This document shows positions 5,033-41,920 of a stretch of 64,000 nt of DNA, piece after piece. The notes beneath the pieces are model-generated. The model was not told where the DNA came from and did not search any database. It was given only the letters and a program-made list of their open reading frames with translations. The position numbers and the translations under genes were made by a program. Positions within the stretch are counted from its first letter, which is position 1. Every line of letters begins with the position of its first letter. Source of the stretch: an uncultured Lachnospiraceae bacterium (GTDB taxonomy: Bacteria; Bacillota; Clostridia; Lachnospirales; Lachnospiraceae); assembly GCA_900316165.1 (NCBI GenBank), contig ONBW01000008.1:2135-66134 (forward strand), in the 5' to 3' direction.

Positions 5033-5143
5033 AGTCCCTACAGCTTATGATGATAGAAATATCATGATTTGTTGCTCAATAGGATGACTTTTGACAATGA
5101 TATCAAATACATAGTTTTTTGGCTGAAACATCAAAATGTCGAT

Positions 5144-5172
5144 TTGCCTTTAAGGCCTCTTAGTAGTAAAAT
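5144..5172 (+). promoter_or_regulatory. Sigma-A-type promoter candidate for the CDF transporter gene
   Basis: TTGCCT, a 17-nt spacer, TAAAAT, located 45 nt upstream of the ATG. Confidence 0.35.
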
Positions 5173-5216
5173 ATACGTTATTGTTTTAACAGATAGCCTC
5201 AGAAGGAGGAATACAG

Positions 5217-6404
5217 ATGGCAGTTACTGATAATTCTGCTTTAGATAAAGAAAATAAGCCTACAGTGGTAAGTGGCGAGGCGCTTGACGCTGCGGATGAC
5301 AGAAACAGGCAGATAGTAAAGACTAGTATTATAGGAATTCTCGCAAATGTCTTTCTGGCAGCGTTTAAGGCTGTTGTAGGTACGCTTTCAGGTTCTATCG
5401 CAATCGTACTCGATGCGGTAAATAACCTCTCAGATGCGGCAAGCTCTGTAATAACTATTGTCGGAACGAAGCTTGCAGCTAAGCAGCTTGACAGGAAGCA
5501 CCCATATGGCTATGGCAGGATAGAGTATTTGAGCGCGATGATCATTTCAGTTATCGTTCTCTTTGCCGGCGCGTCCTCATTAAAGGAATCTGTCGCAAAG
5601 ATCATAAAGCCGCAGAAGCCTGATTATACTGTTGTTGCGCTTGTTATCGTGGCAGCTGCCGTCCTGGTTAAAATTGTCCTCGGTCGCTTTGTAGAGAGCA
5701 GAGGAAAGAAGCTCAATTCCGATTCACTGGTCAACTCCGGTAAAGACGCGATGCTCGACTCAGTAATCTCAGCATCAACCCTAATAGCAGCGGTAATTTT
5801 TATTTTTTCAGGAATATCACTTGAGTCGTGGCTTGCAGCAATTATTTCGGTTGTCATCATCAAGTCAGGTATCGATATGCTGCGTGAGGCGATTTCAGAG
5901 ATTCTCGGAGAGAGAGCCGACATCTCACTTTCCCAGCATATAAAGGCTGTAGCAAGGGAATTCCCACAGGTCGAAGGTGTTTACGACCTTATCCTTCACA
6001 ACTATGGCCCGGATTCATTTATCGCTTCATTTCATGTAGAGGTTCCGGATACACTTTCAGCAGCAGATATAGACAAGCTGACGAGGCAGATTACCTACGC
6101 AGTATACTGCAAATGCCATGTGCTGACTGCTGCGATAAGTGTCTACTCTATTAATACGCAGGATGATGAAGTTATTGAGATCCGTGAGAACATCAAAAAA
6201 ATAGTTATGGAGGATAAAAATATTCTTCAGATGCACGGATTCTATTTAGACGAAGAGAATAAAAAGATGCGTTTCGACCTTGTCGTAAGCTTCAATTCTT
6301 CGGACAGACATCAGACCTTTATGGATGCGCTTAAAAAGGTTCAGGAAGTCTATCCGGATTACGAGATCCGTCCGAATATGGATGCAGACTATTCAGAGAC
6401 TTAA
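5217..6404 (+). CDS. Cation diffusion facilitator (CDF) family metal efflux transporter
   Basis: Six TM helices followed by a cytoplasmic C-terminal domain. CDF-like motifs LANVFLAAFKAVVG, DAVNNLSDA and HPYGYGRIEYL are present. There is a strong RBS (GAAGGAGG). Confidence 0.8.
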   Translation: MAVTDNSALDKENKPTVVSGEALDAADDRNRQIVKTSIIGILANVFLAAFKAVVGTLSGSIAIVLDAVNNLSDAASSVITIVGTKLAAKQLDRKHPYGYGRIEYLSAMIISVIVLFAGASSLKESVAKIIKPQKPDYTVVALVIVAAAVLVKIVLGRFVESRGKKLNSDSLVNSGKDAMLDSVISASTLIAAVIFIFSGISLESWLAAIISVVIIKSGIDMLREAISEILGERADISLSQHIKAVAREFPQVEGVYDLILHNYGPDSFIASFHVEVPDTLSAADIDKLTRQITYAVYCKCHVLTAAISVYSINTQDDEVIEIRENIKKIVMEDKNILQMHGFYLDEENKKMRFDLVVSFNSSDRHQTFMDALKKVQEVYPDYEIRPNMDADYSET

Positions 6405-27449: not shown

Positions 27450-27601
27450 CGCAGAGTAGACTGTATTACGTTAAGTGTCTGGTGAACAGGGAGTTGTCAT
27501 CAGAACGAAGAGCCATGCGGCTCGCGGTTTTATGGTCGCATCCCGCTGCTGCATGGAAGAGACGCCCTCCTGTGCGGTTAAAGGACTTACTGCAAAGGAG
27601 G
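27450..27601 (+). promoter_or_regulatory. THF (tetrahydrofolate) riboswitch aptamer (about 27450-27552) with an RBS-sequestering expression platform
   Basis: GCAGAGTAG..CGTTAAGTG..TGAAC.GGGAGTTGTC..AACGAAG..GCGG..GCATCCCGCTGC matches block-for-block the THF-I aptamer as I recall it from the Eubacterium siraeum structure (GGAGAGUAG..CGUUAAGUG..UGAAUGGGAUGUCGUC..AACGAAG..GCGG..GCAUCCGCUCC). The P1 helix is GCAG/CTGC. Downstream CCCTCCT (27556-27562) is complementary to the SD AAGGAGG (27595-27601). The element sits directly upstream of a folT-like gene. Confidence 0.88.
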
Positions 27602-27608
27602 TATTTTT

Positions 27609-28184
27609 ATGCAAAAATTCATTCAAAACATCAAGGACTCGGCAGCAGAGCTTAAGAATGTACGTGTCTTATGCACTGTGGCTATGCTGATGGCATTATC
27701 AGCCGTACTCAATATGGTCTCAACGATCAACATCGGACAGTTTATCCATATCGGTCTCGCATGGATCCCGATAGTACTTATAGATGCAATGTTCGGGCCT
27801 TTAACTGGAGCGCTCTCAGCAGCAGCACTAGATATAATAAACTACTGCATAAGGCCGGACGGGGCATTTTTTCCTGGGTTTACTATAGGAGCGATGCTCT
27901 CGGCCTTCATTTATGGACTTTTCCTTTATAGAAAACAGATTGGTATCGTAAGGTGCTTTGCAGCTCATGGAGTAGTAACAGTAGTAAATAATCTGATACT
28001 GAACACTCTTTGGCTTTCAATCCTATATGGGCAGGCATTTAAGGCGCTTCTAATCCCAAGGCTTGTAAAGAACCTGATCACCTGGCCTATATACAGCATC
28101 ATGCTTTTTGCAATCATTACTGCTATGGAGAAAACTAAGGCAGCAGCACTTTCAAAAGCCGGTCATTATCCGAAGGCTTCATAA
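27609..28184 (+). CDS. folT: Folate-family ECF transporter S component
   Basis: A 191-aa integral membrane protein with about 5-6 TM helices. Its N-terminus is like FolT S-components, and it is preceded by a THF riboswitch. Confidence 0.75.
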   Translation: MQKFIQNIKDSAAELKNVRVLCTVAMLMALSAVLNMVSTINIGQFIHIGLAWIPIVLIDAMFGPLTGALSAAALDIINYCIRPDGAFFPGFTIGAMLSAFIYGLFLYRKQIGIVRCFAAHGVVTVVNNLILNTLWLSILYGQAFKALLIPRLVKNLITWPIYSIMLFAIITAMEKTKAAALSKAGHYPKAS

Positions 28185-29314: not shown

Positions 29315-32300
29315 TTGAAAGAAAAAATCCAGCGTCTCGCAGAGGGAGAATTCGAGCGCAGCTTTCCTAAGCCGGCTGCTGAGCCGGCCTCTATAGTAAA
29401 AAGCGGGTCTGAGGGCCGTGATATAGATGGAAGTCTGCGTATCTATACAGAAAGTGACACACCGCTCGAGGGTGAAATCTGCTCTTCGAACGCGTACGTT
29501 ACTGTAGAGCAGAGTGATTTTTCAGGCAGAGAGATTAGTCTTTACTTTTGTGCACATACTGCGGGGTTCTGCCCTGGAATAAAGCTTGACGGTCATTTTA
29601 CTGTTATTACTGACGGCTATAACCTTACTATTCCATATTCATTTACAGTTACGGAGAAGTATCCGGAGACTGTGAGTGGGGAAATCCGTGAGTTATCAGA
29701 CCTCTATGAGCTTGAAAAAAATGACCGCAGGTCAGCAGTTTCTGTTTTTGCATCTGATGATTTCAAGAGACTTCTAAAAAGGCATTTTCAAGAGGCTTTT
29801 CTAAGCTACAGGGCTCTTACCGGTACTATGGGATATACTCCTATGGCCTTGGAGAGCTTTCTGTGTGAGAACAGCTTAAAGGATCCTATCCGTCTGCATG
29901 TTTTCCCAAGTGACTTAAATTACTATGCAGTAAATGAGGATGTAAAGGAAACTTTCCGTATCACGAGAAATACTGACGGATATGTATCGCTTACTTTTTC
30001 TGTGCCAGAGAACAGTTTTGTGACCCTTGGCATGACAGCAGCCAGCGATGATGATTTTTATGGCGGTACGCTTGAGGTACCTTTCTTTATAAAAAAAGAT
30101 CGTATCCATCCGGGGGTAAACACTACAAAACTTACCATTAAGGGAAACGGAGTCCTGATAGAAAAGGAGATAACTGTTTCCACCTATGGTCGTGATGAAA
30201 AAGTATACGAAACGGGCCGCGAGAAAAAGCGGATTATTTGTGACGCATTAAAAGATTACTTAGATTTCAGACTGAGAAAGACTGATACAGATCAGTTCTT
30301 AAAGTCCGTTACAGAGACTACCGAATATTTTCTAGATAAAAATCCAGCGGATATTTTTTCACTGCTGTACCGAACCATGGCTCAGATCGTAGCAGGTGAT
30401 AAGAAGGATGCACTTGTTACGATAGCTATGCTTAAAGAGATGATTACCGAGAAGAAGAGCTTCGAGTGGGCTTTTCTTCTGTACCTCTGCTCGCTTCTTG
30501 ATTCTGAGGAAGGATATGTAGACAGGATTACTGCAGAGATAGAGGCTATCGAAAACGAACTTGATGATGCGAGGGTTTTCTGGTTCCTTCTCTTCCTTAA
30601 AAAGGAGTACAGCGAAAACCCGCTTAAGCGTCTTTCCGATATCAGGAAGTGGATTAACAAAGGCCATCATTCACCGGTTCTCTATGCTGAAGCACTTGAT
30701 GTGATGAATGCCTATCCGCAGTATATAGGGCAGCTTGACAGCTTCTCACTTGCAATTCTACGGTTTGGACAGAGGAACGGAGTTTTAAGCCGTGAGATTG
30801 TGCCGTATATCACAGAGTTCCTCTATGACATGAAGGATTATAGTATTGCTGTCTTTGATTTTGCAGGAAAGCTGTTTGACAGGTATGATGATACGTCTCT
30901 GCTTTCAGCAATTATCTCTTACCTCTTAAGGAACAGGTGCATCGGGAAAGAGTATGCTATCTGGTACAAGAGAGGCATTGAGTTAGACCTGAATCTGACA
31001 GGCATCTATGAGAATTACATGTACTGTATCGATGAGTCAGATACGGATATGCTGCCACGCCTGCTGCTCCTTTATTTTTCCTATGATGATGGAGAGCTGT
31101 CTGAGGACAAACGAAAGTATCTGTACGCTAATGTTATCATGTACAAGGACAGACAGCCGGATATCTATGATTCTTACAGGAGTCAGATAGAACGGTTTGC
31201 GATAGAAAAGCTTCAGCAGGGGAGTATTGACGATTATCTCTCAGTTATCTACAGAGATTTGTATAAGAGCAATTTCTTTGATCAGGATTTGAAAGAAAAG
31301 CTGTTTGAGCTTAAGGATGCGCTTAAGATTTTCTGCCTCTCACAAGATTCCGGACAGCTCAGTGTATATACAAAGCAGCTTGATAAGCCGTATGTCACTG
31401 AGCTTCATAATCATTCAGCTATAATTGGGATAGGAAGTGATGACTTCTTTACTGTCCTTACGAATCAGAATGGTATTTTCGCTGAAAAGGATTTATTTTA
31501 TACTGAGAAGCTTCTTCCAGAGTTATCGGATGAGACAGGCGATAATGCTTCAAAAAAAGTCTGGGTAACGCCGGATCTCGAGCAGTCACATGCTGATGGG
31601 CTTATATGTACAAATGATTTTAATGATATAAGTATTGATGAAATCCCAGGGGATCTCAACCTGAAGGACAGAGATCTGCCAGTTGTTTCGTTCTACTTGA
31701 GAACTCTTATCGAGAGGGAGAGGCTTGACCAGGCATTTGCTCTTATGAAGGAGGTCTATGCCTTTAACGTTCCTGAGAACCTGCTTCTACATCTCGCGAC
31801 AGGACTATGCAGGGAGGCTGGAGAGGACCAGTTCCTTGTAGCGCTCTGTACCTGGCTTATAGCCCACTATCTGTCAAATACTGTGACTCTCGAGTATCTG
31901 TGCAGGTTTTACAAGGCCCCTACAAAAGAGCTTATTTCTGTCTATAAGTATGCGAATGCCAGGGGACTTGATGTAAGTGATCTGTCGGAAAGAATTTTGG
32001 AGCAGGAGATATATGAGGAGGGTGATTATCCGGAGACTGGAGATATCTTTATGTCATGCAGGCTTGTTCACCCTGATAATGAGCTTAACATGGCTGCACT
32101 GACTTATTTTTCAGACAGGTATGTACTTGGAAAAACATTAAATCCTGATGATGAATTCTTTAAGCTGATAAAAGACGCTTATGTATCAGATAATGAGATA
32201 AATGCCAGTGTAAAGACTGCGCTCTTAAAGCACTATTCCACCATGGGGACCTTAAAGCCAAATGAGCTTAGTATAGCAAGAGAGCTTCTTACGGAGAATG

Positions 32301-32734
32301 TACTGGACGGGACATATTTTTCATTCTACAAAAAAATGGACATCCGTCTTGTAAGAGAGTTTGGATTCTACGAGAGAGTATTTATTGAGACAAAGGCTGA
32401 TTTCGGGCAGCAGCTTACTGCAGTTTTATACCCTGGTGAGGAAAATGAGAAAATCCTGGATATGGATGAGGTTTATGATGGCATCTATATCACGTCGCTT
32501 GTACTTTTCAGAGGAGAGAGCGCCTGGTACGAGATCAGGGATGAGAAGGGTGAGCGCCTTGGCAGCGGTACCGCTTCAAATCAGGACTATCCTGATGGGG
32601 TCGTAAAGAGCAGATTCGGACTTATAAACGAGATCTCGGAGGAAGAGAAGGCGGGGAACGAAGCACTGTCTGAGTGCCTTAAAGAGTACCTTAAGCTTGA
32701 TATATCCTCAGATGACCTTTTTTCGATGGTGTGA
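29315..32734 (+). CDS. Uncharacterised 1139-aa protein: N-terminal beta-sandwich-like modules, a long alpha-helical repeat body and a C-terminal beta-rich module (cassette protein A)
   Basis: A long uninterrupted ORF. The only start-type codon after the in-frame stop at 29297 is the TTG at 29315, preceded by GAAAGGA. I recognise no catalytic motif. From memory it resembles a Clostridia-restricted family of unknown function (possibly Pfam DUF5717), which is unverified. Confidence 0.6.
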   Translation: MKEKIQRLAEGEFERSFPKPAAEPASIVKSGSEGRDIDGSLRIYTESDTPLEGEICSSNAYVTVEQSDFSGREISLYFCAHTAGFCPGIKLDGHFTVITDGYNLTIPYSFTVTEKYPETVSGEIRELSDLYELEKNDRRSAVSVFASDDFKRLLKRHFQEAFLSYRALTGTMGYTPMALESFLCENSLKDPIRLHVFPSDLNYYAVNEDVKETFRITRNTDGYVSLTFSVPENSFVTLGMTAASDDDFYGGTLEVPFFIKKDRIHPGVNTTKLTIKGNGVLIEKEITVSTYGRDEKVYETGREKKRIICDALKDYLDFRLRKTDTDQFLKSVTETTEYFLDKNPADIFSLLYRTMAQIVAGDKKDALVTIAMLKEMITEKKSFEWAFLLYLCSLLDSEEGYVDRITAEIEAIENELDDARVFWFLLFLKKEYSENPLKRLSDIRKWINKGHHSPVLYAEALDVMNAYPQYIGQLDSFSLAILRFGQRNGVLSREIVPYITEFLYDMKDYSIAVFDFAGKLFDRYDDTSLLSAIISYLLRNRCIGKEYAIWYKRGIELDLNLTGIYENYMYCIDESDTDMLPRLLLLYFSYDDGELSEDKRKYLYANVIMYKDRQPDIYDSYRSQIERFAIEKLQQGSIDDYLSVIYRDLYKSNFFDQDLKEKLFELKDALKIFCLSQDSGQLSVYTKQLDKPYVTELHNHSAIIGIGSDDFFTVLTNQNGIFAEKDLFYTEKLLPELSDETGDNASKKVWVTPDLEQSHADGLICTNDFNDISIDEIPGDLNLKDRDLPVVSFYLRTLIERERLDQAFALMKEVYAFNVPENLLLHLATGLCREAGEDQFLVALCTWLIAHYLSNTVTLEYLCRFYKAPTKELISVYKYANARGLDVSDLSERILEQEIYEEGDYPETGDIFMSCRLVHPDNELNMAALTYFSDRYVLGKTLNPDDEFFKLIKDAYVSDNEINASVKTALLKHYSTMGTLKPNELSIARELLTENVLDGTYFSFYKKMDIRLVREFGFYERVFIETKADFGQQLTAVLYPGEENEKILDMDEVYDGIYITSLVLFRGESAWYEIRDEKGERLGSGTASNQDYPDGVVKSRFGLINEISEEEKAGNEALSECLKEYLKLDISSDDLFSMV

Positions 32735-32737
32735 TAT

Positions 32738-33985
32738 ATGGAAAATGAAGTGAGGACAAGAACAGGAGCCGTCTACGGAATAGATATTTCTGAAAGTCGT
32801 GCTCTTATAAGCTACATTAATCCGGATGGAGCTGAGCCTACTACAGTTTCCTTAGTTTATGGTGAGGAAAATTACTGTGTTCCGATGGCCGTGACAAAGC
32901 GGGATGGAATAGGGCAGTGGTATACAGGTGAAGAGGCTTTAAGCAGGGCTGATCAGAGCGGTTTTACTCCGGTAAAGGATTTTTATAAGAAAGCTCTTTC
33001 AGGAGAGAAAATTATAGTCGATGCCGGACTTTATGAGGCTTCGGATATTTTTACCATATACCTAAGAAGACTCATTGAGATGGCACAAAGCATGAGCGGA
33101 GTCCGTGAGACTGAGATGATAGTCTTCTGCGTGCAGGATGTTACAAAGGAGGCTGTATCACTCTTTACTGCGGCTGCGTCAAGAATCGGTATTGACATTC
33201 AAAAAACAGCTGTAATCGATAAAAAGGAAGCTTTTTACTATTACTGTCTCTCACAGCTTTCGGAGCTTAAAAAGCATGATATGGCGCTTTTTGAGTGCGA
33301 GGACTTAAATGTCTATGCGCTGAGACTGAATAAGAACTCTTCCGATGATGGTGAGCTTATAACTCTCGATGAGAAATATTTTACACTTGATGAGAATGAT
33401 AAGGACTCGTCATTTGACGACGTTTTAAAGCAGATGCTTGCTGGGAATCAGGTTTCTGCTATATATCTGACCGGTTCAGGATTTTCTAAAGAGTGGATGA
33501 ATCTCTCTCTACAGAGAGCACTCTTAGGACACAGGGTATTTATCGGACAGAACCTCTATACCAGAGGGGCTGTGTATGCAGCCATGGTAAAGACGAAGAG
33601 TGTAAACTGGGGCTATACCTATGTGGGAGACCACGAGCTTAAGCTTAATGTTTCTCTTAAGGTCTCAGACTTAAATGAGCTCAAGTTTTATCCTCTTATC
33701 AGAGCTGGTGAGAGCTGGTATGAGGAGAAGGGTGAGTGTGAGGCGATTCTCGATGGCTCACCTGAGGTCGAGATCTATATCGGAAAGCCTGATTCGAGAA
33801 AGACTGTTGTCTCTGTCTTAAAGCTTAAGGATCTTCCTGTAAGGGAAAACAGGCTGACCAGGCTTCGTATAACCGCAACCCCTGTCTCAGATAAAAAGGT
33901 AAGTATTAAGATCCTTGACCTGGGATTCGGAGAGATAGCCAGAGGAAGCGGAAAGACTTTTACTACTACGATTGGAATTGATTAA
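32738..33985 (+). CDS. Uncharacterised 415-aa protein with a degenerate Hsp70/actin-fold layout (cassette protein B)
   Basis: YGIDISESRALISY compares with Hsp70 IGIDLGTTNS. IVFCVQDVTKEAVSLFTAAASRIGIDIQKTAVIDKKEAFYYY compares with VITVPAYFND..AG..INEPTAAA. IYLTGSGFSK compares with VLLVGGSTR. The C-terminal beta-rich tail is ITATPVSDKKVSIKILDLGFGE. The start lies 3 nt after the stop of protein A. It is possibly Pfam DUF5716 (unverified recollection). Confidence 0.55.
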   Translation: MENEVRTRTGAVYGIDISESRALISYINPDGAEPTTVSLVYGEENYCVPMAVTKRDGIGQWYTGEEALSRADQSGFTPVKDFYKKALSGEKIIVDAGLYEASDIFTIYLRRLIEMAQSMSGVRETEMIVFCVQDVTKEAVSLFTAAASRIGIDIQKTAVIDKKEAFYYYCLSQLSELKKHDMALFECEDLNVYALRLNKNSSDDGELITLDEKYFTLDENDKDSSFDDVLKQMLAGNQVSAIYLTGSGFSKEWMNLSLQRALLGHRVFIGQNLYTRGAVYAAMVKTKSVNWGYTYVGDHELKLNVSLKVSDLNELKFYPLIRAGESWYEEKGECEAILDGSPEVEIYIGKPDSRKTVVSVLKLKDLPVRENRLTRLRITATPVSDKKVSIKILDLGFGEIARGSGKTFTTTIGID

Positions 33986-34780
33986 ATGGGTGAACTTATT
34001 CTATGTAAAAGGCCTATTGCGGCCGCGCCTTTTTATATCGAAAGCGTCTCTGTTAATATTTACTCGATTGAGGAATTGAGCTGGTTTATTTTTCACCATA
34101 CAGATATAATCGAGGCTGATTTTATCTCTGATGAGCTTATTAACTGGATATCAGATGAAGCAGGATACAGAGAGCTTGCAGAGAGGCTGCGTTCGGGACT
34201 AAACGCAAAGACTCCGTTTCATGTGCTGATAGAGATGATCCTCTCATCCTGCGGTTATCTGACACCTAAGGAGATAAAGGATACTGTACGTGAGGTTCAG
34301 CTTCAGGCCGGACTTTCTCCAGTTGAAAAGAAAAAGAAGCGGGCAGATCTCCTTATTAAAAACGGAAATATCAGGAAGGCAATAATTGCCTATCAGAACA
34401 TCCTGGCTTTGGGAGACTTAAAGAGAAATATCTATGGTGATATCTGCCACGATATCGGCTATGCATATGCCAGACTTTTTCTCTTTGATGAGGCAGCGGC
34501 CTGGTACAAAAAGGCATATGAGCACAACCTCAGTATAAAAAGTCTGATGCAGCTTCTCTTTGCTCTTATGGAGCAGAATGATGAAGAAAGTATTGCTGAT
34601 ATCGTAAATACCTATCATATCCGCGACGATGACTTGGAGAGGGCCAGGGCTGTATTTAAGGCAGCAGGCGAGACTAAAAAGATTGATGATGCTATCAAAA
34701 ATATAACCTCCGAAGACACAGACATCCATGACTTTGTAAATGGACTTAAGTCTGACTACATCAAAAGGTACGGAGCGTAA
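33986..34780 (+). CDS. Uncharacterised 264-aa helical / TPR-like protein (cassette protein C)
   Basis: TAAATG stop-start abutment on both sides. TPR-like helical hairpins are present (RKAIIAYQNILALGDL.., IGYAYARLFLFDEAAAWYKKAYEHN). Confidence 0.5.
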   Translation: MGELILCKRPIAAAPFYIESVSVNIYSIEELSWFIFHHTDIIEADFISDELINWISDEAGYRELAERLRSGLNAKTPFHVLIEMILSSCGYLTPKEIKDTVREVQLQAGLSPVEKKKKRADLLIKNGNIRKAIIAYQNILALGDLKRNIYGDICHDIGYAYARLFLFDEAAAWYKKAYEHNLSIKSLMQLLFALMEQNDEESIADIVNTYHIRDDDLERARAVFKAAGETKKIDDAIKNITSEDTDIHDFVNGLKSDYIKRYGA

Positions 34781-37615
34781 ATGTTTGGATTTGGAAAGAA
34801 GAAAAAAAATAAAAGCGAAGACGAGGTTTTCAAGGACTTAATAGATGAGGCAGCAGCGATTGATGACATCGACAGTCCAAAGAAAATAGAGCACATGATC
34901 CTCGATTCCTGTGAGCAGATTATTGCAGAGACAAAGGATATCGAAGGGAAAAAGGCCGAATACCGTGTACTAACAAAATACTTAGAGGACATAAAAAGGC
35001 TGAATGACTTAAAGCCCAGGGAAGCGTCAGCTGTAAAGAAGGCAGCTGCAGCCATAGAGAAGGCGCAGAAGAGCAGAAAGAGTTTTATGGATGCTCCAAA
35101 GGCTATCTCTGATGACGCTTATGACCTTATTGCTGAAAATGACAGCACAATTCAGCGTGAAATAGACCGCATGAAGGAGAATGAGGTCTATCAGGCAAAC
35201 ACGGCTGCAAAAATGCATGCCCTTGAAGCTGACAAGGGAGAATTGAAGCTCGATTTCGATGAAGCGACTGCGCAGAGTTCTTTTGCTAGAAAAATCTGCT
35301 ATCTGCTGATGGTTCTCTTTGCTGCTACTCTTATTTTTCTGATAGCGGCTGGAGGCGGCAGCGCATCGCAGACGGCGGGTATTTTTCTTCTTGCCTTTGG
35401 TGTGCTTGCGATGCTTATATTCATGTGGCAGGCATCTTCTATCAGGAGAAGGAAGGCTCTTCTTAGAGATTTAAACTCCACAATTACGACCTTAAATGTC
35501 ACAAGGATGGAGTACGCCAATGTCATAAAGGCTGTAAATGCTACTGCAGACAAGTACCACGTCCACTCATCTACAGAGCTTTTATATCTCTACAATGCTT
35601 ATGATGATTTTAACTACAGGAGAGAAAAGTTCGTAAAGGACGATGAGGACCTGACATACTGGGATGACTATCTTCTCCGTCTTCTTGCACCGCTGCGTCT
35701 CTATGACAGCAAAATCTGGCTTAAGCAGGCGGCTGCCTTAAATGATGAGGAAGCCATGAAGGATGTCCATAAGGAGCTTGTGGAGAAGCGTTCGGCGGTA
35801 AGAGAGCAGATCAGGCTCGAGACTCATCAGGTAAAGAGTGAACGTGATGAGATCGACAGGCTGATGAAGGAAGCAGACTTTTATGTACCTGAGATCATGG
35901 AGATAATAAAATCCGTAGACAGGCTCTGTGGACTTGACAGATTAAGAAAAGAAGAGGATGATAGTATCCTGAAGTCTCTTGATAAAGAAGAAAATGAAAA
36001 GAAGACTGCTTCAGAGGAAAAATCTGAAAAAACAGAAGAGGCTGTTCCAGAGGAAAAGCCTGAAAAAACTATAAAGACTGTTCCAGAGGAAAAACAGGAA
36101 AAGAATAAAAATAAGCCCGTAAGAAGGGCACAGAAAGAAGAGAAGAAACCAATGAAAGTAAGAACTCGTTTTGCACCATCACCTACAGGAAGAATGCACG
36201 TCGGAAATCTTCGTACGGCATTATATGCTTACCTTATAGCAAAGCATGCCGGCGGTGATTTTATCCTTCGTATTGAGGATACCGACCAGGAGAGATATGT
36301 CGAAGGCGCTGTAGATATCATCTACAGAACTATGAAGGAGACTGGTCTCGAGCATGATGAGGGACCTGATAAGGATGGTGGCTGCGGACCTTACGTGCAG
36401 AGCGAGCGTGTAAAGCAGGGCATATATATGAAGTATGCCAAGCAGCTTATCGATAAGGGTGAGGCTTATTACTGCTTCTGTACACCTGAGAGGCTTGAGG
36501 GCCTTAAGCAGGAGGTTGTAGACGAGAACGGTGAGAAGAAGACTATCTCTATCTATGACAAGCACTGTCTTCACCTGTCAAAGGAGGAGGTCGAGGCAAA
36601 CCTTGCTGCCGGAAAGCCTTATGTCATAAGACAGAACAATCCCCGTACAGGAACTACGACTTTCCATGACGAGATCTACGGAGATATCACAGTCGATAAC
36701 AGCGAGCTCGACGATATGATCCTTATCAAGTCAGACGGCTATCCTACCTACAACTTCGCGAACGTAGTAGACGACCATCTGATGGGAATAACCCACGTAG
36801 TAAGAGGAAACGAGTATCTGTCATCATCACCTAAGTATAACAGGCTCTATGAGGCCTTTGGCTGGGAAATCCCTAAGTATATCCACTGCCCGCTTATCAC
36901 AAATGAGCAGCACCAGAAGCTTTCAAAGAGGAGCGGCCACTCATCATTTGAGGACCTTGTGGATCAGGGCTATCTGACAGACGCTATCGTAAACTTCGTG
37001 GCACTCCTTGGATGGAGCCCTGAGGATAACCAGGAGATCATGAACCTTCCTGAGCTCATCGAGAAGTTTGACTATCACCATATAAGCAAGTCTTCTGCTG
37101 TATTCGATACTACAAAGCTTAAATGGATGAACGGCGAGTACATCAAGAAGATGGATCCTGCAGCTTTCTATAAAAAGGCTCTTCCGTATATAAATGAGAC
37201 TGTTAAGAGAGACTGTGACAAGGAGAAGATTGCGTCCTTAGTCCAGTCGAGGATAGAGATCTTCCCTGATATCGCAGAGCTTATCGATTTCTTCGAGGAG
37301 GTACCGGAGTACGATACATCTCTCTACATCAATAAGAAAAATAAATGCACAGAGGAAAATTCCTTAGAGCTTTTAAAATCGGTTTATCCGGTTCTTGAGG
37401 CGCAGGATGACTATTCTAACGATGCACTCTTTGAAACTCTTAAGGCATACGCTACCGAAAAGGGAGTAAAGGTAGGCTTTGTTATGTGGCCGCTTCGTAC
37501 AGCGCTTTCTGGAAAAGCTTCTACACCGGGCGGTGCGACCCAGATAATGGAGATTCTTGGAAAGGATGAATCTCTTAGGAGAATTGAGGCAGGAATAAAG
37601 AAGCTCGAGGGCTGA
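34781..37615 (+). CDS. gltX: Single 944-codon ORF: a 457-aa coiled-coil protein with two TM helices and a Glu/Lys-rich linker (cassette protein D), fused in frame to glutamate--tRNA ligase
   Basis: There is no stop codon anywhere between the ATG at 34781 and the GluRS module. TM helices are [21 protein letters not shown] and [20 protein letters not shown] (about nt 35294-35432). The E/K-rich linker spans about nt 35960-36151. GluRS begins at [23 protein letters not shown]. Confidence 0.7.
36152..37615 (+). CDS. gltX: Glutamate--tRNA ligase module (487 aa if translated from the internal ATG at 36152)
   Basis: HIGH-type motif [11 protein letters not shown] and KMSKS-type motif KLSKRSG. From this ATG the length matches normal bacterial GluRS. 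Only a weak purine-rich SD-like stretch (AGAAAGAAGAG) precedes the ATG. Confidence 0.85.
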
Positions 37616-37637
37616 TTATAAAAAGGGGGATTTAAGT

Positions 37638-39461
37638 ATGGGAAAGACTCTTTCTAAAGAACAGCAGATGGCTGTAAGTCACTTCAGAGGGCCCTGTCTA
37701 TGCATGGCGGGGCCGGGAAGCGGCAAAACCCTTGTTATCACTGAGCGAATCAGCTCACTTGTGAAGTATAGGGGCATTGAGCCACGCAGGATACTAGTCG
37801 TCACATTCACAAGGGATGCCGCAGCATCCATGAAGAAGAGATGTGAGGACGAAAATCATATCTATCCATCACCTGCGTTTGGGACCTTCCATTCTATTTT
37901 TTATAATATCCTGCTTAAGGAAGGCAGGGTAAGACCGGAGAAGCTTATTTCAGGACGAAAGGCACTAGGTCTTTTATCGCTTTCCGTAAATGAGTGCGGC
38001 ATAAAAGAGACTGATAAGGACTTTTTTACGACCCTTCTTCGTGCAATCAGTTTCTACAAAAATACCGGAATCTTAGATGAAAACCTCTATCCCAATCAGA
38101 TAAATACAGCTGAGATGAAGCACATTATAGCTTCATTCAGGGGTCATACTGTCTGTGAGGGGTATTTTGACTTTGATGATATACTTGTGGAAACAAAGCA
38201 GTTTTTTAAGGATAATCCTGAAAGACTAGATCTGTGGAGACGGAGATTTCCATTTATCCTCGTGGATGAGGCACAGGATATGAACAGGCTTCAGTATGAC
38301 ATCATAACAGAGCTTGCAGGACCTGATAACAATCTCTTTTTAGTAGGAGACGACGATCAGGCCATATACAGCTTCAGAGGGGCTGATCCGAAGCTTCTTA
38401 TGCAGTTTAAGAGAGACTATCCTGATGCAGAGACTGTGATCCTTAATCAGAATTTCCGCAGTCATTCAATTATAGTGGAATCCTCGGCAAATCTTATCTC
38501 AGAAAACAAAGCCCGCTTTGAAAAGAATCTGAAGGCTTTTTCTGCCGAAAGAGGCTCAGTAGAAATCATCACAGCGGCAGATGAGCACGAGGAGGGAAGG
38601 CTTGTCGCTGGAAAAATAAACGAACTTCTTAAGGCTGGAGCAGACCCGGCTCAGATAGCTGTACTATATAGAAATCGTATGGTCAGTGCCTGTCTTATGG
38701 AGGAGCTTGCGAGGCTTTCAGACGAAGAAGGCGGAGGAGATTTATTATTCTATAAGAGCTTTGTGTTCAGCGATATCATGTCATATCTGTTGGTTTCACA
38801 GAAAGGAATTGTGGATAGGGAACATTTCTTAACGGCTCTTACTCATCCTGACAGGAATATAGCTCTTATAGGTTTAGGCAGGAAAGAAATTGATAAGAGA
38901 GAGTGGCTCTTTAAGATGCAGAAAACTGTCTTTAAAGAAGATGCAGAGGCATTTATCAGGGAAATCGATTTCCTGTCAAAGCTTTCTCCTGCGGCAGCGA
39001 TTAATTTTATCATAAGAAAAATGGAGTACGGTAAGTTCATCCGTGATTTTTCATACAGGAATGGGGTGGACGCCTCTATCTATTTAAAACATGCTGATAA
39101 TCTGGCAAAAAAAGCGCAGGGCTATAGAAAAATAGATAAATTCTGTGATGCAATGCTTGAGGAAAAGGACCATGCATTCTATACAGCGAGCCGGAAGCCA
39201 AAGTCTGAATCTGTCGGATACTATACTTTTCACGGCTCTAAAGGTCTTGAATTCGATACTGTCTTTATCATTGGAGCCTGCGACGGGATAACTCCGTCAG
39301 AGAAGGCTGATTCCATTGAGCGGATAGAAGAGGAGAGAAGGCTTTTCTATGTGGCGATGACCCGCGCGAAAAAGAGCCTCTATATCTCAGTTTCCGGCCG
39401 GTACGGCAATCACAGCTATTATCCTTCTCCGTTTATCAGGGAAGCTTTTGGAAATTTATAA
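37638..39461 (+). CDS. UvrD/Rep/PcrA-family ATP-dependent DNA helicase (short form, 607 aa)
   Basis: Walker A AGPGSGKT, motif II LVDEAQDMN, VGDDDQAIYSFRGA, NFRS, and C-terminal TFHGSKGLEFD and RLFYVAMTRAK. Confidence 0.8.
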   Translation: MGKTLSKEQQMAVSHFRGPCLCMAGPGSGKTLVITERISSLVKYRGIEPRRILVVTFTRDAAASMKKRCEDENHIYPSPAFGTFHSIFYNILLKEGRVRPEKLISGRKALGLLSLSVNECGIKETDKDFFTTLLRAISFYKNTGILDENLYPNQINTAEMKHIIASFRGHTVCEGYFDFDDILVETKQFFKDNPERLDLWRRRFPFILVDEAQDMNRLQYDIITELAGPDNNLFLVGDDDQAIYSFRGADPKLLMQFKRDYPDAETVILNQNFRSHSIIVESSANLISENKARFEKNLKAFSAERGSVEIITAADEHEEGRLVAGKINELLKAGADPAQIAVLYRNRMVSACLMEELARLSDEEGGGDLLFYKSFVFSDIMSYLLVSQKGIVDREHFLTALTHPDRNIALIGLGRKEIDKREWLFKMQKTVFKEDAEAFIREIDFLSKLSPAAAINFIIRKMEYGKFIRDFSYRNGVDASIYLKHADNLAKKAQGYRKIDKFCDAMLEEKDHAFYTASRKPKSESVGYYTFHGSKGLEFDTVFIIGACDGITPSEKADSIERIEEERRLFYVAMTRAKKSLYISVSGRYGNHSYYPSPFIREAFGNL

Positions 39462-39537
39462 AATATTGGGATTTTTAGTCCTCTTTTATGTTATAATGAT
39501 TTCCGAATACGATTAAATGAGCGAGTTTGGAGATTAT

Positions 39538-41364
39538 ATGAACTATGAAATGAAAAAAGGCAGCTTTTTAAACCCTGGTGCATTCCATCGCAGGAAGGGA
39601 ATAGAGCTTACTGTGGTGGCCAGAAGAGAAGGCAGCCTTTCTGTCATTTTTTACGATAAGAATACCAGGAAAAAGCTTAAAGAGATTGCTATACCAAAGT
39701 CATTCAGTGTAGGCAGGGTTTATTCCGTATTTTTCCCAGAACTAAGTGGTGAAGTCTGCTACATGTTAAAGGACAGGGACGGTGTCTACTTAGATCCATA
39801 TGCTCCTGTAATAACAGGAAGAGAAAAATGGAATGACATAACCAGAAAAAAGAATAATTATTTCGTCTATGGAGGTATCGGAAAGAGCGTTTCTGACTAT
39901 AGTGAGAAGCTTTCGCCTGTTGCACCTGAGGATATGGTCATCTATAAGCTTCATATCAGAGGTTTTACAGAGTCGAACGGCCTTTCCGCAGCGTATAAGG
40001 GGAATTACAGGGGAATCATCAGAAAACTTCAGTACTTAAAGGGACTTGGTGTGACCTCTCTTCTTTTCATGCCGCTCTATGAGTTTGAAGAGATCAGATA
40101 CCACGCATATAAGGTCACAGAGCCTGACGATTCTGTCGGAGAGGTGACTTCAGATCCTTTTGGGGTTAATTACTGGGGATATGGAGACGCGTCTTATTTT
40201 GCGCCGAAGGCGTCATATTTCGGTGCAGATCAGCAGAGAGGAATGGACTTACTGGTTAATGCCATTCATAAAGCCGGAATGGAGATTCTGATGGAGTTTT
40301 CATTCACGACCGAGAAGGCCATTTCAAATCCAAGATTTATCACGAATATCCTTATCTACTGGCATCTTAGATACAAGGTCGATGGCTTTCATCTGATTGG
40401 TGAAGGTCTGCCTATTGACTATATTCTTAAGCATCCTAAGCTTTCGGATGTGAAGATTTTCTATGAGAAAACAGATGAGAGAGGACTTTCAAATGAGGAT
40501 CACAAGAGATTTTTCTACTACAATGATGACTTCATCTATCCTCTGAGAAAGCTTGAGAACCATATGGACGGTTCGGTAGCGGAGCTTGCAAACCAGATGA
40601 GAAAACAGGGTGAGAAGTTTGGCTTTGTAAACTACGCAGCAGAAAAGACAGGTTTTACTCTTCTAGATGCCTACAGCTATGGTGAGAAACACAACGAGGC
40701 AAATGGTGAGGACAACCGGGACGGAAGTAACTATAACTGCAGCGCAAACCATGGCTGTGAGGGTAAGACTAACAGCCGTAATGTAAATGAAAAGCGCTAT
40801 ATCTGTGTCAGGAACGACCTGACTCTGCTTTTCCTCTCACAGGGTATTCCGCTTATTACTGAGGGTGATGAGTCACTTAATTCGGCAGATGGAAACAACA
40901 ATCCGTATGGTCAGGATAATCCGGTTGGCTGGGTTCAGTTTTCAAATAAAAAGGACGCGAAGCTCTTAAGAGAATTTGTAAAGCAGTTATCAGTGTTCAG
41001 GAAAGCTCATCCGAATATTCGTACAAAAAAGCCTATGAGGCAGAATGATTACATAGGCTGTGGTCTTCCAGACCTCTCATATCATGACAGCGAGCCGTGG
41101 ATAATGGGTATTGGTCCTGAGAAGAAAGGCCTTGGAATCCTCTATGCCGGAGCGTACGCTGGTGAGGAATGTGAGGACGTTATGGTCGTCATGAATTTTT
41201 ATTATGAGGACAGGACATATGCTCTTCCTTCTCTTTTAGGAGACCGCAAATGGTATTTAGTTGCAAATACCAGAGAAGAAAAGTTCTTTGATGAACCAAT
41301 ACGTGTTGATGATGAAAAGATAACTGTGCCATCAGGTACAGTCTCTATTCTGACAGGCAGGTAA
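39538..41364 (+). CDS. GlgX/isoamylase-like GH13 protein (CBM48-like N-terminus) with non-canonical residues at the catalytic positions
   Basis: The block GFTLLDAYSYGEKHNEANGEDNRDGSNYNCSANHGCEG is typical of debranching enzymes, as is GDESLNSADGNNNPYGQDN. The GH13 regions read EFSFTT (I), VDGFHLIGE (II), IFYEKTD (III) and YAAEKTGFTL (IV). The preferred start is the ATG at 39538, 7 nt after GGAG. Confidence 0.7.
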   Translation: MNYEMKKGSFLNPGAFHRRKGIELTVVARREGSLSVIFYDKNTRKKLKEIAIPKSFSVGRVYSVFFPELSGEVCYMLKDRDGVYLDPYAPVITGREKWNDITRKKNNYFVYGGIGKSVSDYSEKLSPVAPEDMVIYKLHIRGFTESNGLSAAYKGNYRGIIRKLQYLKGLGVTSLLFMPLYEFEEIRYHAYKVTEPDDSVGEVTSDPFGVNYWGYGDASYFAPKASYFGADQQRGMDLLVNAIHKAGMEILMEFSFTTEKAISNPRFITNILIYWHLRYKVDGFHLIGEGLPIDYILKHPKLSDVKIFYEKTDERGLSNEDHKRFFYYNDDFIYPLRKLENHMDGSVAELANQMRKQGEKFGFVNYAAEKTGFTLLDAYSYGEKHNEANGEDNRDGSNYNCSANHGCEGKTNSRNVNEKRYICVRNDLTLLFLSQGIPLITEGDESLNSADGNNNPYGQDNPVGWVQFSNKKDAKLLREFVKQLSVFRKAHPNIRTKKPMRQNDYIGCGLPDLSYHDSEPWIMGIGPEKKGLGILYAGAYAGEECEDVMVVMNFYYEDRTYALPSLLGDRKWYLVANTREEKFFDEPIRVDDEKITVPSGTVSILTGR

Positions 41365-41365
41365 T

Positions 41366-41920
41366 ATGAGTTTAAAAAAAGCATTTCTACACTTCAAGAC
41401 GATAACGCATCACAGACACCTCGTAATGAAAGGCTGTTTTAAGGTGGGCCTTTATAAACAGGGCCTGCTGCATGACCTTTCGAAATATTCATGGACAGAG
41501 TTCAGAGTAGGAGCCAGGTACTATCAGGGGACGAGGAGCCCGAACAATGCCGAGCGTGAGGAGACAGGCCTCTCTACAGCCTGGCTCCATCACAAGGGCA
41601 GAAACAAGCATCACTACGAGTACTGGATAGACTACGATATAAATGCAAAGGATGGAGAGATGCCTCTTACTGGTATGAAGATGCCTGTCAAGTATGTAGT
41701 AGAGATGTTTATCGACAGAATCTCGGCCAGTAAGAATTACCTCGGTGATAAATACCAGGACGATTCAGCGCTTACGTACTATCTGAAGGGCCGTGGCCAT
41801 TACATAATCCATCCTGAGTCAGATGCACTCCTTTATAAGCTTCTTCAGATGAATGCCGATAAGGGTGAGGAAGCAACGTTTGCCTATATCAGGAAGTATG
41901 TCCTTAAGAATAAAAAATGA
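41366..41920 (+). CDS. Conserved hypothetical His-rich protein (possibly the DUF5662 family, unverified)
   Basis: 184 aa with His clusters HHRH and HHKGRNKHHYEYW. The start lies 1 nt after the GlgX-like stop. Confidence 0.4.
   Translation: MSLKKAFLHFKTITHHRHLVMKGCFKVGLYKQGLLHDLSKYSWTEFRVGARYYQGTRSPNNAEREETGLSTAWLHHKGRNKHHYEYWIDYDINAKDGEMPLTGMKMPVKYVVEMFIDRISASKNYLGDKYQDDSALTYYLKGRGHYIIHPESDALLYKLLQMNADKGEEATFAYIRKYVLKNKK

Follow-up and report, generated by a model that had tools for sequence, protein, structure and literature searches.

A conserved in-frame fusion of a putative two-helix membrane module to glutamyl-tRNA synthetase in Lachnospiraceae

A 64,000-nucleotide stretch of DNA from an uncultured Lachnospiraceae bacterium (GenBank assembly GCA_900316165.1, contig ONBW01000008.1, positions 2,135 to 66,134 of the forward strand), referred to here as the window, carries an open reading frame (ORF) in which a module with two predicted transmembrane (TM) helices is joined through a lysine/glutamate (K/E)-rich linker to a complete glutamyl-tRNA synthetase (GluRS), the product of gltX. 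The ATG of this ORF directly abuts the TAA of the upstream gene (...gcgtaaATG). At least six further diverged lineages of gut and rumen Lachnospiraceae carry the same in-frame fusion. On the comparisons set out below, the locus probably represents a real, maintained, and selected fusion that tethers GluRS at the cytoplasmic face of the membrane, most likely with free GluRS produced alongside it. The features of the locus and its immediate neighbors are listed in Table 1.

Table 1. Features of the fusion locus and adjacent genes, in window coordinates
Feature	Position	Strand	Details
DUF5717 protein, cassette gene 1	29315..32734	+	1139 aa; Pfam DUF5717_N and DUF5717
DUF5716 protein, cassette gene 2	32738..33985	+	415 aa; Pfam DUF5716_C, 2.6e−83; syntenic in relatives
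TPR-containing protein, cassette gene 3	33986..34780	+	264 aa; weak TPR_2/TPR_8 matches
Fusion ORF (2-TM module, linker, GluRS)	34781..37615	+	944 codons; ATG start; 0 in-frame stops
2-TM membrane module, residues 1-385	34781..35935	+	Ends in SVDRLCGL; corresponds to cassette gene 4 in relatives
Predicted TM helix 1, ~residues 172-190	35294..35350	+	Kyte-Doolittle windows >1.6; end of AlphaFold2 helix 124-189
Predicted TM helix 2, ~residues 201-218, then RRRK	35381..35434	+	Kyte-Doolittle; start of AlphaFold2 helix 195-259
Sigma-70-like motif TTGACA-17-GATGAT	35934..35962	+	Candidate gltX promoter within the coding sequence; 10/12 matches
K/E-rich linker, residues 386-457	35936..36151	+	72 aa; 50% A
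In-frame tandem array	35997..36102	+	Period 36 nt (12 codons), 3 copies; Tandem Repeats Finder score 113, 77% matches
Shine-Dalgarno-like stretch AGAAAGAAGAG	36132..36142	+	Upstream of internal ATG; duplex ΔG −7.0 kcal/mol with ACCUCCUUUCU
Internal ATG (M458)	36152..36154	+	Canonical gltX start codon; aligns with residue 1-2 of 1J09
Complete bacterial GluRS, residues 458-944	36152..37615	+	487 aa; TIGR00464, Pfam domains, HVGN and KLSKR motifs
UvrD-like helicase, downstream neighbor	37638..39461	+	Pfam UvrD-helicase and UvrD_C; syntenic in relatives

The C-terminal part of the ORF matched Pfam tRNA-synt_1c and Anticodon_2 over residues 459 to 939 (Anticodon_2, 1.1e−45). Residues 459 to 937 covered positions 1 to 465 of the 470-position bacterial glutamate--tRNA ligase profile TIGR00464 (gltX_bact) with 500.6 bits, a full-length match above the curated cutoff of 289.95. 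This part also aligned end to end with the Thermus thermophilus GluRS 1J09, placing M458 on residue 1-2 of that protein, and the class I motifs HVGN (residues 473 to 476) and KLSKR (713 to 717) were identical across all fused lineages. Two statements of a preliminary description of this DNA, that the 944-codon frame is unbroken and that residues 458 to 944 form a complete GluRS, were thereby confirmed, the former by the ORF list and the latter by the profile, domain, alignment, and motif matches. By synteny, this GluRS is orthologous to the ordinary gltX product of relatives, with 84 to 89% identity to stand-alone GluRS over the region compared, and its ratio of nonsynonymous to synonymous substitution rates (dN/dS) was 0.02 to 0.05. 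The GluRS is intact. No second gltX was present within the 64-kb window.

Residues 1 to 457 matched no Pfam or NCBIfam family. Residues 1 to 385, however, are a full-length member of an unnamed Lachnospiraceae family of stand-alone 2-TM proteins (E values down to 1e−169; 35 to 67% identity), for which 118 stand-alone homologues of 370 to 425 aa were recovered; an exhaustive search gave 428 cluster representatives. The module shares with this family both the terminal SVD(K/R)LCGL sequence and the position after DUF5717, DUF5716, and TPR genes, so that synteny upstream of the stand-alone genes is identical to that of the fusion locus. The other listed members of ∼390 to 425 aa end 0 to 30 residues past SVDRLCGL, whereas in the fused clade the frame runs on into GluRS. 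In an AlphaFold2 model built with 52 homologues (pLDDT 86) the module was entirely helical, and two helices of ∼65 residues (124 to 189 and 195 to 259) were predicted to form a hairpin with the TM pair at its tip. By the positive-inside rule both termini of the module should be cytoplasmic, and the C-terminal GluRS would therefore face the cytoplasm. The dN/dS of the module was 0.02 to 0.08. Foldseek comparisons with the PDB returned generic coiled coils only (chemoreceptor and SMC/MukB/JetC arms; TM-scores ≤0.41), and a PDB profile search with the module gave no match.

Some distant members of the 2-TM family are far longer than the usual ∼395 aa, namely, P0143 (455 aa), P0176 (967 aa), and P0243 (728 aa). 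P0143 carries a fragment of Peptidase_M41 (FtsH type), and the extra parts of P0176 and P0243 contain no Pfam domain; all three may be further fusions of the 2-TM module. Independent fusions to GluRS were sought among the longer members and rejected, as P0176, P0243, P0227, P0216, and P0256 all lack a GluRS domain.

Other assemblies contributed at least 18 contigs that encode the exact 944-aa protein, and two of the loci, L086 and L087, were nucleotide-identical over the whole 2835-nt ORF. In one public scaffold (L001; ENA XIAO16-1_SAMEA3663131 scaffold_305), the gene is split into calls of 355 and 583 aa by a scaffold gap, a run of 10 N at ∼5945 to 5954 that is equivalent to window position ∼35815; its linker is identical. 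The 583-aa call, P0119, is the protein database entry for this locus and hides the fusion from protein searches. When one genome per GTDB species was scanned with the N-terminal module, 80 loci were kept, and five of these (L006, L007, L008, L009, and L010) carried the same in-frame fusion; the genomes were RUG335, SUG1620, RUG096, SUG1701, and Candidatus Weimeria sp. HCP3S3_B5. A metagenome-assembled genome at NCBI (GCA_017387905.1; L088, JAFOTT010000053.1, positions 1 to 2213) is also fused, the frame running unbroken from the contig edge and including the C-terminal half of the 2-TM module. Because this contig begins within the module, the NCBI Prokaryotic Genome Annotation Pipeline (PGAP) annotated just the 487-aa GluRS from the internal ATG. 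Three further fused loci (L092 to L094), one with a new 74-aa linker, were identified in JGI metagenomes. Fused lineages were 62 to 86% identical to the window in the N-terminal module and 87 to 96% in GluRS, and dS between fused species was >1 or saturated. The idea that the fusion is unique to the genome of the window was therefore rejected, given the further examples among JGI metagenomes and the genomes representing GTDB species. An initial protein search with a word index had returned no fused homologue; the protein index evidently misses them or has them called differently. With calls of 583 and 487 aa from gene callers and PGAP, the locus is annotated inconsistently, and the fusion is easily overlooked in databases.

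The linker measured 49, 49, 51, 59, 67, 72, or 74 aa in the fused lineages and was in frame in all of them. No stop codon occurred in frame 0 of the linker in any of six species compared, while the other two frames held 2 to 9 each (4 and 9 in the window), and frame continuity far exceeds chance. Alignment of the linkers implies at least five separate indels, each a multiple of three. A near-duplication previously noticed in the linker of the window proved to be part of the three-copy, 36-nt array detected by Tandem Repeats Finder, a segment that is absent from the aligned sequences of L006 and L007. In most pairs the linker dN/dS was 0.10 to 0.50, and L008, L009, and L010 share a 16-aa motif, PVIKKVSALDIYNKEK, in which changes fall mostly at third codon positions. 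The in-frame indels, the stop-free frame 0, the dN/dS values, and the shared motif together argue for translation of the linker in frame 0 and for selection on its continuity. Both modules are under purifying selection, as is, more weakly, the linker. Programmed frameshifting on the A-runs of the linker was considered and rejected, as inspection revealed no slippery motif conserved across lineages. Synonymous divergence was low in the linker, with a dS of 0.12 between L006 and L007 compared with 0.86 to 1.23 in the flanks and of 0.57 between the window and L006 compared with 1.5 to 2.3; possible reasons are constraint on the nucleotide sequence from promoter or initiation signals, the limited choice of K and E codons, and recombination.

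In the sister group (L003 to L005 and L011 to L013), the gene order is the same (DUF5717, DUF5716, TPR, 2-TM, gltX, UvrD), but the 398-aa 2-TM protein and the 490-aa GluRS are encoded by separate genes that share an 8-nt overlap and are read in different frames. Many other Lachnospiraceae have gltX 11 to 220 nt downstream of the 2-TM gene, and in Pseudobutyrivibrio the cassette is present with no gltX within 4 kb. A neighbor-joining tree placed the fused set {window, L006, L007}, the split set {P0001 to P0005}, and the fused set {L008, L009, L010} in one clade. Junctions in the split subclade consist of a 17-nt overlap (L002), ATGA (L090), or TAATG (L091), and L002, compared with the fused L009, has a single additional base between GTA and ATG. 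A stop upstream of position 36152, which the preliminary description had considered for close relatives, is absent from the closest ones (85% and 83% identity); the subclade in which the genes are split has 63 to 65% identity. One fusion followed by one fission and two independent fusions are equally parsimonious. In both cases single-base changes toggle between the fused and split states, and gltX, where it is split off, always starts at the same ATG. In the ancestor, cassette gene 4 and a housekeeping gltX would have been adjacent and translationally coupled through overlapping stop and start codons, and a small frame change in the purine-rich tail of the 2-TM gene could then have joined the two in one frame.

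Several features at the internal ATG bear on whether free GluRS is also made. This ATG is kept in all fused lineages and is the actual start of gltX in the split L002, L090, and L091. The Shine-Dalgarno (SD)-like stretch AGAAAGAAG is likewise kept in all fused lineages, and an AGAA(A/G)GAAG block is found in all of these and in split L002, while the remaining linker diverges. The SD had initially been described as weak, which was an overstatement: its duplex energy of −7.0 kcal/mol is close to the median of −7.75 kcal/mol for 46 gene starts in the window, is equaled by 6% of 380 internal in-frame ATGs, and is stronger than those of the three preceding cassette genes (−3.4 to −5.8 kcal/mol). 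The minimum free energy of the local mRNA at the internal ATG was −8.2 kcal/mol in the window and ∼0 in L008 to L010, compared with medians of −11.3 kcal/mol for internal ATGs and −7.2 kcal/mol for real starts. Synonymous-codon conservation peaks, for the entire ORF, at codons 464 to 477, just 3′ of the internal ATG.

The sigma-70-like motif was the top plus-strand promoter match in the region from 34500 to 37800. It occurs at a fixed position throughout the clade, in fused and split members alike (as TTGACA-17-GAAAAT or CAGAAT), but not in outgroups, and the base that completes TTGACA is retained even though the codon starting there encodes R, T, or I. In the unfused L018 and L020, where gltX lies 69 to 78 nt downstream, a TTGACA-18-CATGAT sequence (10/12) was seen at the 3′ end of the 2-TM gene (∼5140 to 5175), which suggests that placement of a gltX promoter inside the preceding coding sequence may recur.

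The three genes preceding the fusion ORF form a tightly packed cassette (29315 to 34780, + strand), in which each stop codon either abuts the next start codon or lies 3 nt from it. Across Lachnospiraceae the cassette is conserved and has the 2-TM gene as its fourth member, and its gene order recurs in L003 to L005, L001, and L086. A PADLOC scan gave no meaningful matches for the cassette proteins, and a known defense system was rejected as the identity of the cassette. A PDB sequence search with the cassette returned no match, the Pfam and PADLOC scan matches included no transferase-like domain, and no relevant literature was found for DUF5716 and DUF5717. An Rfam scan at gathering thresholds identified no T-box or similar regulatory RNA at the fusion locus. 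Beyond the UvrD-like helicase, positions 39517 to 41920 (+ strand) encode a 615-aa protein with a weak alpha-amylase-like match and a 184-aa DUF5662 protein, and both genes are syntenic with the fusion locus in relatives. Further upstream, a tetrahydrofolate riboswitch (RF01831, 81 bits; 27450 to 27550, + strand) lies directly 5′ of the S component of an energy-coupling factor transporter (ORF 27609 to 28184), presumably a folate-family transporter under riboswitch control.

Taken together, the locus is best explained by a tethered and a free pool of the same enzyme. The 944-aa protein would insert into the membrane by its helical hairpin with both ends in the cytoplasm, carrying a complete GluRS on a flexible K/E-rich tether of 49 to 74 aa at the inner face. 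The locus most likely also yields a free 487-aa GluRS, since the gltX ATG, AGAAAGAAG, an A-rich and weakly structured initiation region, and the promoter-like TTGACA-N17 have been retained. Both possibilities had been raised in the preliminary description, and both gained support that stops short of proof: a membrane-anchored GluRS from frame conservation and a linker dN/dS of <1, which argue for a translated and selected fusion, and production of fusion and free GluRS from one mRNA from the conserved ATG, SD-like stretch, and promoter-like site.

A number of observations weigh against this explanation. The topology, the translation of the full fusion, initiation at the internal ATG, the activity of the promoter-like site, and catalysis by the GluRS are all inferred. 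The linker dN/dS was 0.9 for L006/L007, the least diverged pair with few substitutions, and one subclade reverted to, or stayed at, separate genes, so that the fusion is not indispensable. At the internal start, the SDs of fused lineages (−5.7 to −7.3 kcal/mol) are weaker than those of unfused gltX (−7 to −12.6 kcal/mol) and the SD is rather distant from the ATG, while conservation of Met458 in about seven lineages is weak evidence because neighboring residues are also invariant. Promoter-like matches are frequent in this AT-rich region (9 found, 4.6 expected), the −10 hexamer matches at only 4/6 positions, and the fixed spacing of the site could result from protein-level conservation of the LDxxKKxEEN segment.

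The strongest alternative, although an unlikely one, is that the 944-aa fusion is the sole product, and the sole GluRS if there is no paralogue, so that all tRNA-Glu would be charged at the membrane; the conserved ATG and purine-rich stretch would then be leftovers or protein-level features. Maintenance of the frame through several in-frame indels and saturated dS, the weaker SD relative to unfused gltX, and the single gltX of the window would all fit, and a sole membrane-bound aminoacyl-tRNA synthetase (aaRS) has a precedent in the ValRS-CAAD of Anabaena (PMC4893482). Against it, the ATG, SD-like block, and unstructured initiation region are conserved in nucleotides while the remaining linker diverges freely, and split lineages function with exactly this start.

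Alternatively, two separate proteins might be the functional ones, with the fusion a tolerated read-through product that has no function of its own; free GluRS would come from the internal start or promoter and the 2-TM protein from proteolysis of the linker or frameshifting on its A-runs. The junction is indeed labile, toggling between states within one clade by single-base changes, the linker shows little conservation of either sequence or length, and its alternative frames soon hit stops. This account is nevertheless quite improbable, as the independent linker indels, at least five and all multiples of three, would by our estimate have a chance of ∼(1/3)^5 under neutrality of the frame, most pairs have a linker dN/dS of <1, L008 to L010 have retained a 16-aa motif, and no slippery heptamer is conserved across lineages.

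Very improbable, and proposed by analogy, is a dedicated channeling enzyme, in which the tethered GluRS would feed Glu-tRNA(Glu) to the DUF5717/DUF5716/TPR machinery for a nonribosomal membrane reaction while a second, housekeeping gltX is located elsewhere. An N-terminal membrane module with a C-terminal aaRS parallels LysX (PMC2713425), and gltX follows the cassette directly in many Lachnospiraceae lineages. However, the fused GluRS is the orthologue of ordinary gltX by synteny, identity (87 to 96% among fused lineages, 84 to 89% to stand-alone GluRS), and dN/dS (0.02 to 0.05), the Pseudobutyrivibrio cassette lacks a nearby gltX, and no transferase-like domain was detected in the cassette. 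The last option, that the stop is missing through an error of sequencing or assembly or through a very recent mutation in one strain, as the preliminary description had allowed, is next to impossible: the linker is A-rich with homopolymer runs and one public scaffold has the gene split, but that split stems from a scaffold gap, and the exact protein on at least 18 other contigs, the at least six diverged fused lineages, and the saturated dS all contradict it.

If the fusion acts as proposed, it would be an independent, convergent case of a membrane-anchored aaRS and would suggest that tethering of a class I synthetase to a membrane has recurring selective value. It is doubtful that these Lachnospiraceae have no GluRS other than the tethered form, or that this form serves a dedicated function; were either the case, it would rank as the first GluRS with a membrane anchor outside the cyanobacteria and would provide a first functional handle on the conserved cassette. 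As the only GluRS, it would confine an essential translation enzyme to the cytoplasmic membrane in a nonphotosynthetic Firmicute, and as a dedicated one it would channel Glu-tRNA(Glu) into a tRNA-dependent membrane reaction of the DUF5717/DUF5716/TPR machinery. The fusion links an essential and well-understood enzyme to a four-gene DUF5717/DUF5716/TPR/2-TM cassette for which no literature was found. Closely related lineages that are fused or split, with junctions differing by single bases, also amount to a natural experiment.

N-terminal additions to GluRS are known from other settings. Eukaryotic GluRS carries an appended GST-like domain at its N terminus. In PDB entry 3AL0 an engineered chain joins GatC through a linker to GluRS, which indicates that an N-terminal fusion is tolerated and compatible with folding and tRNA binding. 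These differ from the present protein in being an artificial construct or soluble protein-interaction modules without a membrane anchor.

Mycobacterium has a separate housekeeping LysRS in addition to LysX. LysX consists of an MprF-like N-terminal membrane domain and a complete C-terminal LysRS (PMC2713425), and it stands as a special-purpose case beside the membrane-anchored aaRSs of cyanobacteria (PMC4893482). The present fusion shares the layout of a membrane N terminus followed by a complete aaRS. In LysX, however, the membrane domain is an aminoacyl-lipid synthase that consumes Lys-tRNA, whereas no transferase domain was detectable in the present fusion and residues 1 to 457, without any Pfam or NCBIfam match, contain no MprF-type aminoacyl-phosphatidylglycerol synthase domain.

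The closest likeness is to the CAAD-containing aaRSs of cyanobacteria, reportedly described by Luque in 2008 and Olmedo-Verd in 2011. CAAD, with two TM helices and a coiled coil, anchors monomeric class I aaRSs to thylakoids, and GluRS-CAAD was proposed to have arisen by fusion of adjacent gltX and curt1 genes, which close relatives keep unfused (Santamaria-Gomez 2016; PMC4893482). According to the same authors, membrane-anchored active aaRSs had by 2016 been found in no organism outside cyanobacteria (PMC4893482). At the present locus, too, a monomeric class I aaRS is joined to a two-TM, coiled-coil module, and neighboring genes have fused while relatives retain them separately. The anchor differs in that it has no CAAD or CURT1 match (residues 1 to 390 at E ≤ 1; residues 1 to 457 at E ≤ 0.01), is N-terminal and ∼385 aa long where CAAD is a small domain, and belongs to the DUF5717/DUF5716/TPR cassette; its hosts are anaerobic gut and rumen Lachnospiraceae without thylakoids. 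By analogy, the fusion described here may work like a CAAD-aaRS while standing outside that family, as a convergent variant of the same design.

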